A stretch of 64,000 nucleotides of DNA from the NCBI GenBank assembly GCA_964479955.1, contig CAYZNK010000001.1, forward strand, positions 77,073 to 141,072. The letters run 5' to 3'. Of this stretch, positions 48,286 through 52,673 are shown one piece after another. The stretch's first letter is position 1. Each line of letters starts with the position of its first letter. A program made the translations under genes and the position numbers. The notes beneath the pieces are model-generated. The model was not told the DNA's origin. It worked only from the letters and a program-made list of their open reading frames with translations, and made no database searches. The stretch is from an uncultured Candidatus Saccharibacteria bacterium (GTDB lineage Bacteria; Patescibacteriota; Minisyncoccia; Minisyncoccales; Staskawiczbacteraceae).

Positions 48286-48817
48286 AACAGCAGAGTTTAT
48301 TATTAAGGGAGGTGTTGTTGTCTGTCCCACAGACACTGTTTACGGATTTTTGGCTGATGCTTCAAGTAAAAAAGCTGTTGAAAAAATATATAAAATAAAA
48401 AAAAGGCCCCGACAAAAACCATTAGCTATTTTTGTGAAAGACTTAAAGGCAGCAAAAAAGCTTGCTGAGATTAATGAAAAACAGGAAAAAATATTAAAGA
48501 AAAAGTGGCCGGGGAGATTTACTTTTATATTAAAAAGAAAGCCATCTAAACTATACGGCCTTAACAAGGATACAATTGCTTTGAGAATTCCAAAATACAA
48601 ATTTTTGAATGATTTGTTAAAAAAAATTAACAGACCATTAGCTCAGACTTCTGTAAACATTTCAGGGCAACCACCACTTACAAAAATTAGTGATATTGTA
48701 AAAGTTATTGGGAGGTCGGACCTCCCAATGATTATAATTGATGCTGGAGAGTTAAAAAAAGCTAAAGTTTCAGTTATAATTGATATAACTCAAGATATCT
48801 TGACGAGGATGAGATAA
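48248..48817 (+). CDS. tsaC: L-threonylcarbamoyladenylate synthase (TsaC/YrdC family)
   Basis: GGVVVCPTDTVYGFLADA, RPRQKPLAIFV, AQTSVNISG. Confidence 0.88.
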   Translation: MDFLKNSKGALNKTAEFIIKGGVVVCPTDTVYGFLADASSKKAVEKIYKIKKRPRQKPLAIFVKDLKAAKKLAEINEKQEKILKKKWPGRFTFILKRKPSKLYGLNKDTIALRIPKYKFLNDLLKKINRPLAQTSVNISGQPPLTKISDIVKVIGRSDLPMIIIDAGELKKAKVSVIIDITQDILTRMR

Positions 48818-48828
48818 AATGCTATAAT
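48800..48828 (+). promoter_or_regulatory. Consensus sigma70 promoter for the DGR target gene (TTGACG - 17 nt - TATAAT), embedded in the 3' end of tsaC
   Basis: ttgacgaggatgagataaaatgctataat. Followed by an 8-bp leader hairpin gggtaaaa/ttttaccc (48838-48860) and a weak SD aaaggga. Confidence 0.65.
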
Positions 48829-48890
48829 AAATATATAGGGTAAAATATTGGGTTTTACCCAAAAACAGTTTTTTACAAAGGGACAACGCA

Positions 48891-49511
48891 ATGACTAATT
48901 CAGTCACGACCCAGTCCACCATCACCAATGGTCAGATCGGACAGATCAATGACCGTCTCGCTACCAAGTTGCGCGAGTCAGGCTTGCCCGCGGAGGTGGT
49001 GCAAATCGTCCTGTCCACTCCTGGTGGTAAGGTTATCGACGAGATGGTTATTGCACTCCGTCGCCGAGTGGAGGCCATCAGTAAGATGGTCGTCCGCCGC
49101 GTGAAGGTGAACCGCACTCGCACGCCGCAAGGGGCTATCCATGCCACCGGGCGTACCGAGTACCTTAACGACGAGGTGGTGAACAGCATGCCTCATAGCA
49201 CGCAAGAGGAAGTGGAGGTTTGCTTCTTCCCGCTCGAGAAGTTCACCGGCGTCGCCGATGTGCAGAAGATGCTCGAAGATCATGGCCTTGAGCCCGACCC
49301 CTACGCCTTGGCGGCTGTCAACGAAGAGGATCCATCTTTCGCCGACATTTATCCCAACAATACCCAGTGGGCGGACAGCAACGGCAATCGCTGCTTTCTC
49401 GCCTTCGGCAGGTTCGGCGGCGGGCGCAAGGTGTACTGCTACCGTAGTGAGGACGGCTGGCGTGGCAGCTGGTGGATCGGCGGCGTCCGCAAGCAATCTT
49501 CGGGCGCTTGA
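48891..49511 (+). CDS. DGR target (variable) protein, 206 aa, GC-rich, no signal peptide or TM; C-terminal variable region
   Basis: The last ~35 codons are the VR copy of the downstream template repeat. ATG start, strong terminator 48 nt after the stop. No named domain recognised in the N-terminal 165 aa. Confidence 0.85.
   Translation: MTNSVTTQSTITNGQIGQINDRLATKLRESGLPAEVVQIVLSTPGGKVIDEMVIALRRRVEAISKMVVRRVKVNRTRTPQGAIHATGRTEYLNDEVVNSMPHSTQEEVEVCFFPLEKFTGVADVQKMLEDHGLEPDPYALAAVNEEDPSFADIYPNNTQWADSNGNRCFLAFGRFGGGRKVYCYRSEDGWRGSWWIGGVRKQSSGA
49390..49494 (+). repeat. DGR variable repeat (VR), 105 bp, with invariant GC-rich 3' end (IMH-like ctggtggatcggcggcgtccgcaa)
   Basis: Aligns without gaps to 49851-49955 (offset 461). 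19 mismatches by hand count, all where the TR copy has A. Confidence 0.9.
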
Positions 49512-49558
49512 CACCCTGGACTCTCGGTTCTTTCGTTTCGTTTTGGTCCCTTGGACAA

Positions 49559-49597
49559 AGCCCCGTTTCGCGTAAGCGAAGCGGGGCTGATTTTTTT
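49559..49597 (+). terminator. Strong intrinsic terminator / VR-flanking hairpin (13-bp stem, GTAA tetraloop, T7)
   Basis: agccccgtttcgc-gtaa-gcgaagcggggct followed by gattttttt. Confidence 0.8.
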
Positions 49598-49850
49598 ACT
49601 AAAGAATGTTATTATATATTCAGATAATAGGCTAATATGTCCGCGGCTAAGGCTTCGGGCGGCCGAATTCCGAAATCAGATAAAGCGCGGAGTTCTGAAG
49701 GCTAAGGCTGACAGAAGAGTCGCTCCTGATTTCTAAAAAATGAAGATTGCTTGGTGCAAAGCGCTATCGCATTAAAGATGCGGAATTAGATACAGCCTTG
49801 ATATCGCGAAAGCTTCGATGGGCAGTGGTAAGGGGGGCGCTTTGCATGAT

Positions 49851-49955
49851 GCTGCTATCTCACCTTCAACAGGTTCAACGACAAGCGCAAGGTGAACTGC
49901 AACCGTAATGAGAACGACTGGAATGACAACTGGTGGATCGGCGGCGTCCGCAAAC
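49851..49955 (+). repeat. DGR template repeat (TR), 105 bp, rich in AAC/AAT codons in the target reading frame
   Basis: In the target frame it reads CYLTFNRFNDKRKVNCNRNENDWNDNWWIGGVRK. It carries an adenine at all 19 positions that differ from VR. Confidence 0.9.
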
Positions 49956-49965
49956 CATTTCATTT

Positions 49966-49984
49966 CCCGCCTAAGGCGGGTTTT
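49966..49984. terminator. Hairpin cccgcc-taa-ggcggg plus TTTT, immediately 3' of TR and abutting the avd stop codon
   Basis: 6-bp GC stem at 49966-49980 and a T-run at 49981-49984 on the plus strand. The avd stop (TAA) is the complement of 49983-49985. Confidence 0.6.
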
Positions 49985-50312
49985 ACTTTACTGCTTTAAT
50001 CCAACCCCCAAGCATCCTTCCGATTTCATTTGTTTTCTCAGAGATTAGAATATATCTCTTGTTATCAAGGCTTTTAATCTCCCATGCGATTTGTAAAAAG
50101 AATTTTAATAAATCAAGTTTGGCAGAAGCGTTTTTAAGGCAAACCATCTTCTCTAATCTGTCTGAATTACCCGCTCTAATTGTTAGCTCAATAGTTTCTA
50201 AAAATAATGAATCAATTTTAGTTCCCATCGTATATTTTGAATCCTTAGGGAAGCTTTTCAGAAATCCATACCACGTTTTATAAATTATGACCAGCTTCTG
50301 TATGAGTGTCAA
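49983..50312 (-). CDS. avd: Avd-like DGR accessory protein (four-helix-bundle, 23S rRNA IVS protein family)
   Basis: 109 aa. The pattern ...YGFLKSFPKDSKYTMGTKIDSLFLETIELTIRA...LDLLKFFLQIAWEIKSL...EIGRMLGGWIK matches Avd/PF05635-type proteins. TTG start. Opposite strand to TR and RT. Confidence 0.75.
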   Translation of the reverse strand: MTLIQKLVIIYKTWYGFLKSFPKDSKYTMGTKIDSLFLETIELTIRAGNSDRLEKMVCLKNASAKLDLLKFFLQIAWEIKSLDNKRYILISEKTNEIGRMLGGWIKAVK

Positions 50313-50323
50313 ATTAAAACTGG

Positions 50324-50341
50324 TTTTTTTTTGGGGGGGGG
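50324..50341. repeat. T9G9 homopolymer tract in the divergent avd / RT intergenic region
   Basis: ggtttttttttgggggggggtatt. Lies 11 nt upstream of the avd start (as C9A9 on that strand) and 24 nt upstream of the RT ATG. Confidence 0.9.
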
Positions 50342-50365
50342 TATTAAAGGCCTAAGGCTATTGTC

Positions 50366-51340
50366 ATGAAAAATATTTTTATTCATAAATTTGAAAACAT
50401 CATAAGCGTTGATAATATTCTGGAAGCCTGGCAGGAATTCCTCAAAGGCAAGAAAAACAAGCCTGACGTTCAAGAATTTTCTCTTCGCTTAATGGATAAT
50501 ATTTTTAATTTGCACTACGAATTATTAAATCATATATATAAACACGGAAAATATCAAAAGTTTAAGATAAACGATCCAAAGCCAAGGATAATTCACAAAG
50601 CAAGCGTAAGGGACAGGCTATTGCATCATGCCATATATCGCAAACTGTATCCGTTTTTTGATAAAAAGTTTATATCGGATTCCTATTCCTGCCGGAACAA
50701 TAAAGGAACTCACAAAGCATTAAGCCAATTCAAAAAATATTGTTATGGCGTTTCTAAAAACAACACGAATCAATGCTGGATTTTAAAATGCGACATCAAA
50801 AAATTCTTTGCAAGTATTGACCAGAATATATTGATAAAGATTCTGGATTCCCGCTTTCGCGGGAACGACACTATGTGGTTGCTAAAAGAAATTATTCTCA
50901 GTTTTAAACCAAACGGATTACCCTTGGGAAACCTCACAAGTCAACTCTTTGCAAATGTTTATTTAAACGAATTTGACCAGTTCACAAAACACAAGCTAAA
51001 AGTAAAATACTATGTCAGATACGCAGATGACTTTGTGTTTTTATCTCGAGACAAAAAATATTTGGAAAATTTGATTCTCAAAATACAAAACTTTTTACAA
51101 AACAAATTAAAATTAATACTTCACCCCGACAAAATATTTATTAAAACAATTTACTCTGGAATAGATTTTCTTGGGTGGGTTAACTTCAAAGACCACAGGG
51201 TTTTAAGAACTAAAACAAAACAGAGGATGTTAAACAGGATAAAAAGCGCTCCAAACGCAGAAACTATAAATTCTTATCTGGGGCTTTTAAAACACGGGAA
51301 TAGTGGTAGAATAAAAGAGAATATTTTAAATAAAATTTAA
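50366..51340 (+). CDS. DGR-type reverse transcriptase
   Basis: RT motifs PRIIHKASVRDRLLHH (1), SYSCRNNKGTHKA (2), LKCDIKKFFASID (3), GLPLGNLTSQLFANVYLNEFD (4, the DGR-diagnostic [ILV]GxxxSQ), RYADDFVF (5), HPDK (6), and GIDFLGW (7). At 324 aa there is no maturase or endonuclease domain. Confidence 0.9.
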   Translation: MKNIFIHKFENIISVDNILEAWQEFLKGKKNKPDVQEFSLRLMDNIFNLHYELLNHIYKHGKYQKFKINDPKPRIIHKASVRDRLLHHAIYRKLYPFFDKKFISDSYSCRNNKGTHKALSQFKKYCYGVSKNNTNQCWILKCDIKKFFASIDQNILIKILDSRFRGNDTMWLLKEIILSFKPNGLPLGNLTSQLFANVYLNEFDQFTKHKLKVKYYVRYADDFVFLSRDKKYLENLILKIQNFLQNKLKLILHPDKIFIKTIYSGIDFLGWVNFKDHRVLRTKTKQRMLNRIKSAPNAETINSYLGLLKHGNSGRIKENILNKI

Positions 51341-51350
51341 GATAAAAACT

Positions 51351-52673
51351 ATGGCAAAATTACAGCAACAAGACCCCAAAATATATGAATTAATAGAGGA
51401 AGAGAAAAAAAGACAAAAGGAGGGCTTGGAGTTGATACCCTCTGAAAGCTATGCCTCATCTGCAGTGTTGGAAGCTTCAGGAAGCGTTTTAAACAATAAA
51501 TATGCTGAGAATTATCCAGGCAAGAGGTATTATGGAGGATGCAGGGTTGTTGATGAGGTTGAAACTTTGTGTCAGGAAAGAGCGATAAAGACTTACGGAG
51601 CAGACGGTTATCATGTTAATGTCCAACCATATTCCGGAAGCCCGGCTAACCTCGAGGTCTATTTTGGAGTTCTTGAATTTGGAGACACTATAATGTCTTT
51701 GAGGCTGGATAACGGTGGGCATCTAACCCATGGAAGTCCGTCTAATCTTTCAGGAAAGGCTTATAAATTTGTTCATTATGGATTAAAGGCAGATGAAACC
51801 ATAGATTATAACGAAATGCTAAAACTTGCCAAAGAATGCAAGCCAAAAATAATTTTATCTGGATTTACCGCTTACCCAAGAATAATTGATTTTAAAAAAG
51901 TAGATGAAATTGCAAAAGAAGTGGGAGCTTTATCAATGGCTGACATATCTCATATCTCGGGGTTAGTTATAGCGGGTGTTCATCCGTCTCCGTTTCCTTT
52001 TACAGATATTGTCACTTCAACAACCCATAAGACATTGCGGGGCCCCAGGGGAGCTATGATATTTTGCAAGCAAGAGTTAAAGGATAAAATTGATAAAGGA
52101 GTTTTTCCTGGAATGCAAGGAGGACCTCATGAGCATACAATAGCCGGGATAGCGGTGGCTTTGGAAGAGGCAACAAAACCGGAATTTAAAGAATATGCTG
52201 AACAGACAGTGAAAAATTCAAAAGCTTTAGCAAAGTCGCTAATGGATGAGGGTTTAAAATTAATGTCGGGTGGAACAGACAACCATTTAATGGTTATAAA
52301 TTTAGTTGATTTTGGAAAAGGAAAGGGTTTTTTTGCAGAAAAAGCTTTGGAGGCCTGCGATATTAGTGTAAACAAGTCAACTGTTCCAAATGAGCCTTCT
52401 GTCCCATATTATCCTTCGGGGATAAGACTGGGGACTCCGGCAGTCACATCTCGCGGAATGAAAGAGAAAGAAATGGAACAGGCAGGAAAGATTGTTGCAA
52501 AAGTTATTAAAAAATTTGCGACGCTGGACATGCCTGAATCTAAAGACGAAAGAAATGTTGTAGCAAAAGAATTTAAAGAAAAAATAAAAGAAGACCCGTT
52601 TATCTTAGAAATTAAAAAAGAGGTTAACGCCCTGGCGAACAACTTCCCTGTGCCGGGAATAGATGACAAATAA
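51351..52673 (+). CDS. glyA: Serine hydroxymethyltransferase
   Basis: LELIPSESYAS, the PLP site TSTTHKTLRGPRG, and VTSRGM. Confidence 0.95.
   Translation: MAKLQQQDPKIYELIEEEKKRQKEGLELIPSESYASSAVLEASGSVLNNKYAENYPGKRYYGGCRVVDEVETLCQERAIKTYGADGYHVNVQPYSGSPANLEVYFGVLEFGDTIMSLRLDNGGHLTHGSPSNLSGKAYKFVHYGLKADETIDYNEMLKLAKECKPKIILSGFTAYPRIIDFKKVDEIAKEVGALSMADISHISGLVIAGVHPSPFPFTDIVTSTTHKTLRGPRGAMIFCKQELKDKIDKGVFPGMQGGPHEHTIAGIAVALEEATKPEFKEYAEQTVKNSKALAKSLMDEGLKLMSGGTDNHLMVINLVDFGKGKGFFAEKALEACDISVNKSTVPNEPSVPYYPSGIRLGTPAVTSRGMKEKEMEQAGKIVAKVIKKFATLDMPESKDERNVVAKEFKEKIKEDPFILEIKKEVNALANNFPVPGIDDK

Follow-up and report, generated by a model that had tools for sequence, protein, structure and literature searches.

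Positions 49607–49984 of the 64,000-nucleotide stretch of DNA analysed here (the window) probably specify a self-contained DGR RNA of ~360 nt, a circularly permuted form of the BPP-1 RNA with its primer located 5′ of the template. Support for this reading comes from a comparative set of ~100 loci (62 species-representative genomes and 39 metagenome contigs), in which the helices bracketing TR covary.

CPR/Patescibacteria DGRs rank among the most abundant hypermutation systems, and what is known of the DGR mechanism comes from a single phage element whose genes are ordered differently. In the accessible literature we found no explanation of how a primer is supplied to a TR that is cut off from RT by an antisense gene, and no earlier description of a permuted, 5′-primer DGR RNA; the one published survey of CPR DGR RNA (Handa et al.) took the phage layout as given. 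With the RNA narrowed to ~360 nt, the CPR system is open to direct tests in vitro.

The DGR locus and its gene order

The window holds a bona fide DGR, with VR, TR, avd and an RT of the DGR clade. Its features are, in order:

48891–49511, plus strand: target gene, a 206-aa ORF in a GC-rich island
49390–49497, plus strand: VR, identical to TR except for differences concentrated at TR adenines
49490–49502, plus strand: IMH-like VR 3′ boundary and flank, CAAGCAATCTTCG, full complement of leader P segment 49741–49753
49559–49597, plus strand: target-gene terminator hairpin (13-bp stem) and T7, with a terminator-like score
49607–49615, plus strand: extended -10 element of the TR RNA, TGTTATTAT, from conserved alignment columns
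49639–49660, plus strand: hairpin HP1 (5 bp + 3 bp; UAAG cap, family consensus UACG), with CTAAGGC copy 1
49686–49722, plus strand: hairpin HP2 (2 + 5 + 3 bp; UAAG/UACG cap), with CTAAGGC copy 2
49738–49753, plus strand: P strand, AAAUGAAGAUUGCUUG, predicted primer, pairing with T 49951–49965; predicted priming nucleotide G49753
49754–49765, plus strand: S2 strand of the 12-bp S2:S1 helix, starting with invariant G49754
49767–49783, plus strand: SLa, a short stem-loop (4 core pairs with GC/AU/CG/UA exchanges)
49784–49794, plus strand: A-rich single-stranded junction, AAUUAGAUACA (U49791, C49793 and A49794 invariant)
49795–49823, plus strand: SLb, a stem-loop with an inserted GAAA-capped extension in the window
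49824–49835, plus strand: single-stranded junction, AGUGGUAAGGGG, with a GUG triplet (G49825 and G49827 invariant, U49826 at least 90%)
49836–49847, plus strand: S1 strand, immediately 5′ of TR, pairing with S2
49851–49958, plus strand: TR, homologous to VR; predicted first templated base G49950
49951–49965, plus strand: T strand, IMH*-like, CAAACCAUUUCAUUU, pairing with P
49966–49984, plus strand: HP3, terminator-like, CCCGCC-UAA-GGCGGG plus UUUU, holding CTAAGGC copy 3
49983–50312, minus strand: avd (Pfam bAvd, E = 3.7e-20)
50324–50341, plus strand: T9G9 homopolymer tract in the avd-RT gap, from the sequence
50366–51340, plus strand: DGR RT (RVT_1, 1.1e-21; LGNLTSQ motif)

The statements about the letters of this locus that accompanied the original prediction all held on re-check. 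TR and VR are 81% identical, and 19 of the 20 differences between them fall at TR adenines. The target gene has a GC content of 0.55–0.59, compared to ~0.32 in neighbouring DNA, and a Pfam search of its 206-aa product matched no family. The LGNLTSQ motif of the RT occupies residues 187–193; across 25 relatives L, N, L, T, S and Q are invariant and G188 is at least 90% conserved. In bRT, residues I181, G182 and Q187 match the DGR RT motif [I/L/V]GxxxSQ. The RT has at least 8000 homologues at E ≤ 1e-20, and the taxonomy of its relatives points to a CPR/Patescibacteria assignment of the locus.

Because avd lies antisense between TR and RT, the layout had been described as unusual. It is instead the norm of this RT clade: a survey of avd orientation in related loci, which had been suggested as a check, found avd between TR and RT, in minus-strand orientation, in all 73 loci with enough flank. 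Wu et al. 2018 (NAR 46:11, PMC5758913) had already named the arrangement Architecture B3, TR-(avd)-RT with avd reversed, and assign 90% of CPR DGRs to it. The window locus, with TR upstream, then a reverse-strand avd, then RT, is identical to B3 in the order and strands of its genes and repeats; the B3 class is defined by gene order alone, without RNA structure or primer location.

A putative transcription unit and its covarying helices

Positions 49607–49984 appear to behave as one transcription unit of ~360 nt, laid out as an extended -10 element, two UNCG-type hairpins, a single-stranded P segment, a three-helix core, TR, T and a terminator hairpin. Conservation of the -10 columns is high (T35 G28 n T40 A37 n A34 A28 T27, of 41 loci); the element sits ~25 nt 5′ of HP1, and the TR RNA is predicted to start near 49622. 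At the other end, the HP3 stem-loop (49966–49980) begins 8 nt past the end of TR homology, is followed by TTTTACTTTA, and has a terminator-like score on the plus strand. An equivalent hairpin with a U tract occurs in 56 of 62 loci, compared to 7.7% of background windows, and the stem sequences differ among loci. Since the avd coding sequence runs through HP3 in most loci, HP3 cannot be the terminator of avd. The conserved -10 element and the terminator-like hairpin support the idea, put forward in the original prediction, that TR is transcribed as a stand-alone RNA. HP3 and T share sequence with avd codons in most loci, and some of their conservation may reflect the protein.

The leader is richer in GC than avd and RT (about 0.46–0.50 versus 0.32). 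The only ORFs between 49598 and 49850 are mechanical ones with TTG starts, none exceeding 61 aa, and an Rfam search of the leader and of 48500–51500 matched no family at E ≤ 1. A structured leader had also been proposed, with covariation among related loci as the way to check it, and the comparative evidence bears this out: compensatory changes occur throughout the leader helices. HP1 shows them in 8 of 8 pairs and HP2 in 10 of 11 (RNAalifold, 41 loci), giving 18 of 19 predicted pairs for the two together, and HP2 is missing from a minority of loci. HP1 and HP2 (8–10 bp, with bulges and a UNCG-type cap) are candidate Avd-binding hairpins, and HP3 is a further candidate.

Two helices supported by covariation, the long-range P:T duplex and S2:S1, together bracket TR. 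S2:S1 is 12 bp long in 62 of 62 loci, with 96.5% of cells paired and compensatory changes in 10 of 10 pairs; the SLb stem is 97.7% paired (4 of 4 pairs compensatory). P:T considered alone is 84.1% paired, versus 68.6% in shuffles (0/500) and 42–55% when registers are shifted by 1–3 columns. Compensatory changes affect 11 of its 13 pairs, with types that include AU:20/UA:18/CG:4 and GC:27/AU:16, and the pairing was replicated in the independent metagenome set. For the whole structure, 85.1% of cells are paired, compared to 66.8% in shuffles (0/500) and 38–53% with registers shifted by 1–3 columns. The minimum-free-energy fold of 49622–49984 recovers all of the covariation-supported helices, and its stability does not significantly exceed that of shuffled sequences (z = -1.43). 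Seven loci with atypical 3′ flanks (L015, L021, L037, L045, L062, L078 and L080) were left out of alignment A3; alignment A5 and the covariance model do contain them.

The core 5′ domain forms a family: its covariance model, built from 62 loci, gave 71 matches at E < 4e-12 in 537 kb searched on both strands. All 71 were on the RT strand and upstream of TR, nine of them outside the training set, and TR homology begins a median of 2 nt past the end of the match, which is S1. The window contains a single match (49731–49848, 81.4 bits). In the independent metagenome set, 58 full-length matches and one end-truncated match occupied the same position upstream of TR, and one locus (L104) had a partial minus-strand match downstream of RT. 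The model can be used for annotating CPR DGR RNAs.

A proposed 5′ primer strand and rival readings

P:T extends to G49753 and S2:S1 begins at the next nucleotide, G49754; S1 ends 2–4 nt before TR; among the aligned loci G49753 is at least 90% conserved, G49754 is invariant, and G49950 is at least 90% conserved. Because covariation places the two helices directly against each other on the P/S2 strand, TR forms a loop of ~100 nt between them.

P relates differently to the flanks of TR and VR. Its positions 4 and 6 are conserved mismatches to the TR flank (21% paired, below all 500 shuffles). In the first set these two positions pair with VR at 0.89 and 0.60 and with TR at 0.26 and 0.16; in the independent set the values are 0.92 and 0.74 for VR and 0.08 and 0.03 for TR. 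Watson-Crick complementarity between the VR flank and P positions 1–6 occurs in 0.60–0.95 of loci (55 + 39), a level equalled in 0 of 2000 locus shuffles. In the window, VR flank 49490–49502 and P form a 12/12 inverted repeat, or 13 bp if one G-U is counted. The RNA primer of BPP-1 forms more pairs with IMH than with IMH* (Naorem et al. 2017), and at the level of the aligned sequences P shows this same signature. Together with the covarying P:T duplex, it argues for an element that primes or recruits RT 5′ of TR, one of the two locations that had been suggested.

The case for P:T and P:VR rests on fixed columns of a MAFFT alignment made without fitting to the structure. Scoring P against TR and VR flanks in free register was set aside, as own flanks scored barely above non-own and shuffled ones (11.8 versus 10.5 versus 10.1), a consequence of the A/U-rich composition of P and T and of the 30 registers permitted. 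An automatic three-way register misplaced many loci, and the counts derived from it were dropped. In 39–41% of loci the 3′-terminal G of P faces an A in TR, so the exact priming nucleotide is uncertain.

The BPP-1 DGR RNA comprises the avd 3′ end, TR and a spacer, and is cis-primed at spacer A56 (Naorem 2017; Handa 2018, bioRxiv 2023). Sp A56 primes, G57 is required and TR G117 is the first templated base, with the primer-template duplex abutting a second duplex that involves the sequence immediately 5′ of TR. The window shares this geometry: its predicted primer-template duplex at the TR 3′ end adjoins a helix made with the strand just 5′ of TR, conserved G residues lie at the helix junction, and the first templated base is predicted to be a G. 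It also has a stop-helix strand followed by a short stem-loop, an A-rich single strand and a stem; UNCG-type-capped hairpins just 5′ of the primer strand; and a primer strand that complements IMH better than IMH*. Unlike in BPP-1, the predicted primer strand and presumed RT-binding domain lie 5′ of TR rather than in a 3′ spacer, as the partners of both the TR flank and S1 are found 5′ of TR. Also unlike BPP-1, the RNA apparently has its own promoter and terminator, and avd is antisense and overlaps the RNA 3′ end. Relative to BPP-1, the break in the chain falls between T and the tetraloop hairpins, and the RT-binding stem is joined to S1. The suggestion of a different DGR RNA architecture is thus borne out as to the side of the primer; the RNA is nevertheless related to the characterised one and reads as its circular permutation.

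Retron msr-msd RNAs have a similar topology, running from a strand through a G, RT-binding stem-loops and the template to a complementary strand. We take the retron a1/a2 repeats, in which a 5′ strand pairs with the template 3′ end, to be the counterpart of P:T. Further shared features are the conserved G that ends the P:T duplex, putative RT-recognition stem-loops between this G and the template, a template read from its 3′ end, and an RNA located upstream of the RT gene. Retrons prime from the 2′-OH of a guanosine (PMC8867640). Unlike in a retron, the window template copies a protein-coding repeat, with adenine-specific differences in the target gene, Avd is present, and the RT is of the DGR clade (LGNLTSQ). 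The likeness is one of topology only, in a locus with a DGR-motif RT, a TR/VR pair and Avd, and no similarity to retron RNA sequences was detected by Rfam. Rfam motifs RT-1 to RT-19 are structured RNAs beside RT genes that have been proposed as primers, RT-10 being the BPP-1 TR-RT spacer (Weinberg et al. 2017). The window element resembles them as a structured RNA near an RT gene and differs in lying upstream of TR, not in the TR-RT spacer, and in matching none of the models.

Three other explanations were weighed. The leader could be a structured RNA with another role (stability, processing, TR RNA level, or sequestration of IMH in a read-through mRNA), with priming by nicked target DNA or some other source. 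Structure by itself is no proof of priming, P complements a VR flank located in cis ~250 nt upstream with which it could pair in a read-through transcript, and the original DGR model was one of target-primed reverse transcription (Naorem et al. 2017). We nonetheless consider this explanation unlikely: element for element, the geometry is that of the BPP-1 initiation complex (a duplex abutting the stop helix, conserved residues at a G/G junction), the template begins exactly at the P:T duplex and ends at S1, a terminator stands between the target gene and the leader, and BPP-1 cDNA synthesis is independent of the target (Naorem et al. 2017).

Less probable still is a BPP-1-like RNA, produced by read-through of the post-TR hairpin, in which the antisense-avd stretch is a spacer containing the primer and RT-binding elements and the leader is a mere 5′ UTR. 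Such a 3′-spacer organisation is that of the only characterised DGR, BPP-1. Handa et al. described CPR DGRs with BPP-1-like elements (40 nt upstream and 100 nt downstream of TR), including stem-loops that bind Avd immediately 3′ of TR and duplexes between upstream and downstream sequence, a reading that differs from the permuted one. Read-through is plausible given the short U tract of HP3 (4 U in the window), and a scan of the 53-nt avd-RT gap found no obvious promoter of RT's own. Against this, S1 pairs with upstream S2 over a median of 11 contiguous pairs, all of them covarying, whereas its best partner within 150 nt downstream of TR gives a median of 6 pairs, the level expected by chance. 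In addition, the segment with the IMH > IMH* signature is upstream of TR, the antisense-avd RNA has no excess stability (z = -0.34), and a terminator-like hairpin is conserved directly after T. That the leader is conserved as a small protein gene, or for promoter or terminator signals only, we find scarcely credible: mechanical TTG-start ORFs of 61 aa and 53 aa do overlap it, but compensatory changes occur in 35 of the 39 pairs of the whole structure, loop insertions and deletions are not multiples of 3, and invariant nucleotides cluster in single-stranded junctions.

Proposed mechanism and short repeats

In the permuted-RNA model, RT-Avd would bind the 5′ domain and the P:T duplex would occupy the RT active site. 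cDNA would be primed in cis from G49753, probably via its 2′-OH and next to invariant G49754, with G49950 as the first base copied. Synthesis would then traverse TR with adenine mutagenesis and halt at S2:S1, which would correspond to the 'cPRT Stop' of BPP-1. The RNA on the 5′ side of the predicted branch, GAAGAUUGCUUG, is colinear with the target antisense strand just past VR; it would consequently pair with IMH and not IMH*, directing the cDNA to VR instead of TR. Transcript ends, the priming nucleotide, the 2′-5′ linkage and protein binding are here all inferred from sequence. The model predicts the promoter, terminator, primer strand, priming G, first templated base and stop helix, and suggests rules for retargeting, in which TR is changed and the P 3′ end is altered to fit a new flank. 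It would also connect the priming of retrons and DGRs at the level of structure.

More tentatively, and with rather less than even confidence, we propose that CPR DGRs, which form the most numerous DGR class, use a retron-like RNA whose 5′ primer strand doubles as a short cDNA-attached guide choosing IMH over IMH*, that each homing event may transfer the P sequence to the target flank, and that the BPP-1 arrangement is derived, the CPR form being the link between retrons and DGRs. Perfect P-VR matches of 11–14 nt, including an indel, occur in the window and in loci L010, L012, L039 and L078, and copying of P into the flank at homing would explain them.

The heptamer CTAAGGC occurs on the plus strand at 49647, 49702, 49971 and 50352, and the original prediction had treated the four copies as a motif. 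Its count across the window is 6, compared to a shuffle expectation of 5.85, so that only the local clustering is unusual. Copies 3 (in the post-TR hairpin loop) and 4 (8 nt 5′ of the RT ATG) are locus-specific, not being conserved in related loci, and a single functional motif of four copies was rejected, as conservation is limited to copies 1 and 2. These two are genuine: each supplies the apical tetraloop module of a conserved hairpin, with consensus GGYUACGGYU. Separately, a tract of G7–G14 is present in the avd-RT gap of 64 of 74 related loci.

The retroelement and its gene order in relatives

The locus is a complete diversity-generating retroelement (DGR), in which a target gene with its variable repeat (VR), the template repeat (TR), Avd and the reverse transcriptase (RT) are all present. 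Of 20 differences between TR and VR, 19 occur at TR adenines. Whatever the original prediction described was found in the window. The parts of the locus are:

48891-49511, +, target ORF (ORF call), whose 3' end is VR
49390-49497, +, VR, 81% identical to TR
49559-49588, +, target-gene 3' hairpin (terminator-scoring)
49851-49958, +, TR (TR/VR pair)
49966-49980, +, hairpin CCCGCC-TAA-GGCGGG followed by TTTT (HP3; terminator-scoring)
49983-50312, -, avd, 109 aa (Pfam bAvd, 3.7e-20)
50324-50341, +, T9G9 tract upstream of the RT start
50366-51340, +, RT, 324 aa (RVT_1; DGR motif LGNLTSQ)
49647, 49702, 49971 and 50352, +, CTAAGGC copies 1 to 4 (motif search)

RT homologues numbered at least 8000 at E <= 1e-20, the named ones being Patescibacteria. 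Gene order was counted in the window and 80 species-representative genomes, at loci whose flank upstream of RT was 450 nt or longer; in all 73 of these, avd was on the minus strand and immediately preceded RT. The layout, at first taken as unusual, is one already known: Wu et al. 2018 (PMC5758913) describe it as Architecture B3, TR-(avd)-RT, in which avd is reverse-oriented. Where a TR/VR pair is clear (62 loci), the cassette is stereotyped, with a median of 334 nt from VR end to TR start (range 227-441) and 10 nt from TR end to the avd stop codon (range -13 to 41). One locus (L039) holds two tandem cassettes, each with an RNA element and avd (732-843 and 2367-2475).

The target gene forms a GC-rich island (window 48850-49600; 0.55-0.59 versus ~0.32 in neighbouring genes). 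Among relatives, median GC was 0.54 for the target body and 0.37 for RT, the difference exceeding 0.10 in 43 of 61 loci; because the excess reaches well past VR, it is more than adenine mutagenesis alone can account for. A sigma-70-like promoter match close to consensus (TTGACA-17-CATAAT, 50284-50312, minus strand) overlaps the TTG annotated as the avd start codon.

A conserved structured leader

Between the target-gene terminator and TR lies a non-coding leader. Its elements, listed together with the T strand at the TR 3' flank, are:

49607-49615, +, extended -10 element TGTTATTAT (alignment with related loci)
49639-49660, +, hairpin HP1 (RNAalifold, 41 loci)
49686-49722, +, hairpin HP2 (RNAalifold, 41 loci)
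49738-49753, +, P, predicted primer strand AAAUGAAGAUUGCUUG, a single-stranded stretch 5' of S2 and complementary to T
49754-49765 with 49836-49847, +, S2:S1, 12-bp helix (core fold, all 62 loci)
49767-49783, +, stem-loop SLa (core fold, 62 loci)
49795-49823, +, stem-loop SLb (core fold, 62 loci)
49951-49965, +, T, TR 3' flank strand, immediately 3' of the TR-VR homology

The VR-TR interval contained strongly conserved blocks in a MAFFT alignment of related loci, which also keep the extended -10 element (TGnTAnAAT) ~25 nt 5' of the first hairpin. Compensatory changes were present in 18 of 19 pairs of HP1 and HP2 (RNAalifold, 41 loci). Each hairpin has the module GGYUACGGYU (family consensus) as its cap; in the window this reads GGCUAAGGCU and corresponds to CTAAGGC copies 1 and 2. 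Copy 4 (50352-50358) can form a small GCC-UAA-GGC hairpin between AAAGG (50346-50350), the likely ribosome-binding site, and the RT ATG; this hairpin showed no conservation in other related loci.

Across the 62 loci, S2:S1 encloses SLa, an A-rich junction (U49791, C49793 and A49794 invariant), SLb and a second junction (G49825 and G49827 invariant), in that order, and 20 of 22 core pairs exhibited compensatory changes. SLb of the window carries an inserted GAAA-capped extension common to one relative (L061), another (L054) has a GCAA-capped one, and most loci have a short 12-nt loop in its place.

Searching both strands of 537 kb with a covariance model of the leader core (R1) gave 71 matches (E < 4e-12). 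Every one lay shortly before a TR and on the strand of RT; nine came from sequences outside the training set, and the window had a single match (49731-49848). On 80 independent metagenome contigs, R1 produced 58 full-length matches and one end-truncated match in the corresponding position, as well as a partial match on the minus strand; the contig concerned (L104) has a partial second RNA element downstream of RT on the opposite strand (1537-1608, minus). Rfam yielded no family match to the locus (48500-51500, E <= 1), not even among the RT-1 to RT-19 motifs (Weinberg et al.), which include the BPP-1 spacer. Together, conservation and covariation indicate that the leader is a conserved structured RNA.

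A duplex bracketing TR and its primer signature

Pairing was scored in A3, where leader, N8 linker and TR 3' flank of 55 loci were aligned with MAFFT independently of any structure. The full structure model was 85.1% paired versus 66.8% in column shuffles (0/500) and 38-53% when registers were slid 1-3 columns; P:T by itself was 84.1% paired versus 68.6% (0/500), with 42-55% in slid registers. Eleven of 13 P:T pairs had compensatory changes (e.g. AU:20/UA:18/CG:4 and GC:27/AU:16). Since P:T ends at G49753 and S2:S1 starts at the invariant G49754, the two helices abut on the P/S2 strand; TR homology begins a median of 2 nt past S1, so TR is the loop between them. Conservation reaches at least 90% at both G49753 and the template base G49950. 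The minimum-free-energy fold of 49622-49984 recovered HP1, HP2, P:T, S2:S1, SLa, SLb and HP3, with an unremarkable z-score of -1.43.

Positions 4 and 6 of P:T, counted from the P 3' end, are conserved mismatches (21% of cells paired, below all 500 shuffles). The VR flank was placed on the TR register, and its register is hence independent of P.

Watson-Crick complementarity to P by position from the P 3' end
Position 1: VR 0.94, TR 0.61
Position 2: VR 0.87, TR 0.83
Position 3: VR 0.91, TR 1.00
Position 4: VR 0.89, TR 0.26
Position 5: VR 0.85, TR 0.98
Position 6: VR 0.60, TR 0.16
Positions 7-14: VR ~0.26-0.51 (7-9: 0.44-0.51), TR 0.69-0.93

The observed VR-P complementarity was reached in 0/2000 locus shuffles. 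The pattern was replicated in 39 non-duplicate metagenome loci, with VR-P values at positions 1-6 of 0.95, 0.92, 0.95, 0.92, 0.85 and 0.74, and TR-P values at positions 4 and 6 of 0.08 and 0.03 (shuffles 0/2000). In the window, P matches the VR flank over 12-13 contiguous nt (49490-49502 with 49741-49753), including one extra nucleotide absent from T. P of the leader thus has the primer property, a closer match to the VR flank than to the TR flank, that Naorem et al. describe for BPP-1 and propose as the explanation of homing directionality. Priming is predicted at the P 3' end, the exact nucleotide being uncertain. P:T covariation, the conserved core and this signature give strong comparative support to a priming and recruiting element 5' of TR, as originally suggested.

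The RNA 3' end and a proposed permuted architecture

A G+C-rich hairpin and U tract directly follow T in 56 of 62 loci, versus 7.7% of random windows from the same loci, which argues strongly, on comparative grounds, for the predicted termination of the TR RNA. The stems differ widely in sequence among loci. The avd stop codon is 8-38 nt past the hairpin in most loci; the avd coding sequence runs through it, so it cannot be avd's terminator. In the window, the stop is just after the hairpin (49966-49985). In most of the species-representative loci (L001-L080), the last 3-12 avd codons are antisense to HP3 and the T strand, so that avd and the convergent TR RNA overlap.

The BPP-1-like elements that Handa et al. 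inferred for CPR DGRs came from sequence reaching 40 nt upstream and 100 nt downstream of TR, a range that cannot contain P or S2. A BPP-1-like spacer formed by antisense avd is argued against by the post-T hairpin, by the want of a partner for S1 in the 150 nt downstream of TR (median 6 contiguous pairs versus 11 with S2), and by the antisense-avd RNA, which had no excess stability (z = -0.34).

In BPP-1, TR118-121 pairs with Sp53-56; A56 primes, and the required G57 faces TR G117, the first templated base. The resulting primer-template duplex sits "immediately adjacent" to another, avd:Sp59-70 ("cPRT Stop"), of which one strand comes from just 5' of TR. Beyond that lie a short UNCG stem-loop, A-minor adenosines, a single-stranded "Thumb Ring" and a long bRT-binding stem; between T and P is an Avd-binding tetraloop hairpin. 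In the window the elements run HP1/HP2 (UNCG-type caps), P, G, S2, SLa, A-rich single strand, SLb, S1, TR, T, HP3. Exactly the same order results when the BPP-1 RNA is closed 3' end to 5' end and opened between T and its Avd-binding hairpin. Topology and covariation suggest that the window DGR RNA is a circular permutation of the BPP-1 RNA. Retron msr-msd RNA consists of an a1/a2 duplex, a branching G and RT-binding stem-loops, then the template; the window RNA would share this arrangement (a1/a2-like duplex, G, stem-loops, template). We consider it probable that a 5' primer/recruiting element acts within a terminated RNA, refined here to a circularly permuted one.

Of 74 related loci, 64 carry a homopolymer G tract (G7-G14, mostly G10) 13-25 nt before the RT start, and such tracts make up nearly all G/C runs of at least 7 in these loci (70 in 481 kb). 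The tract may act as a slipped-strand on/off switch or as an RT 5' UTR element.
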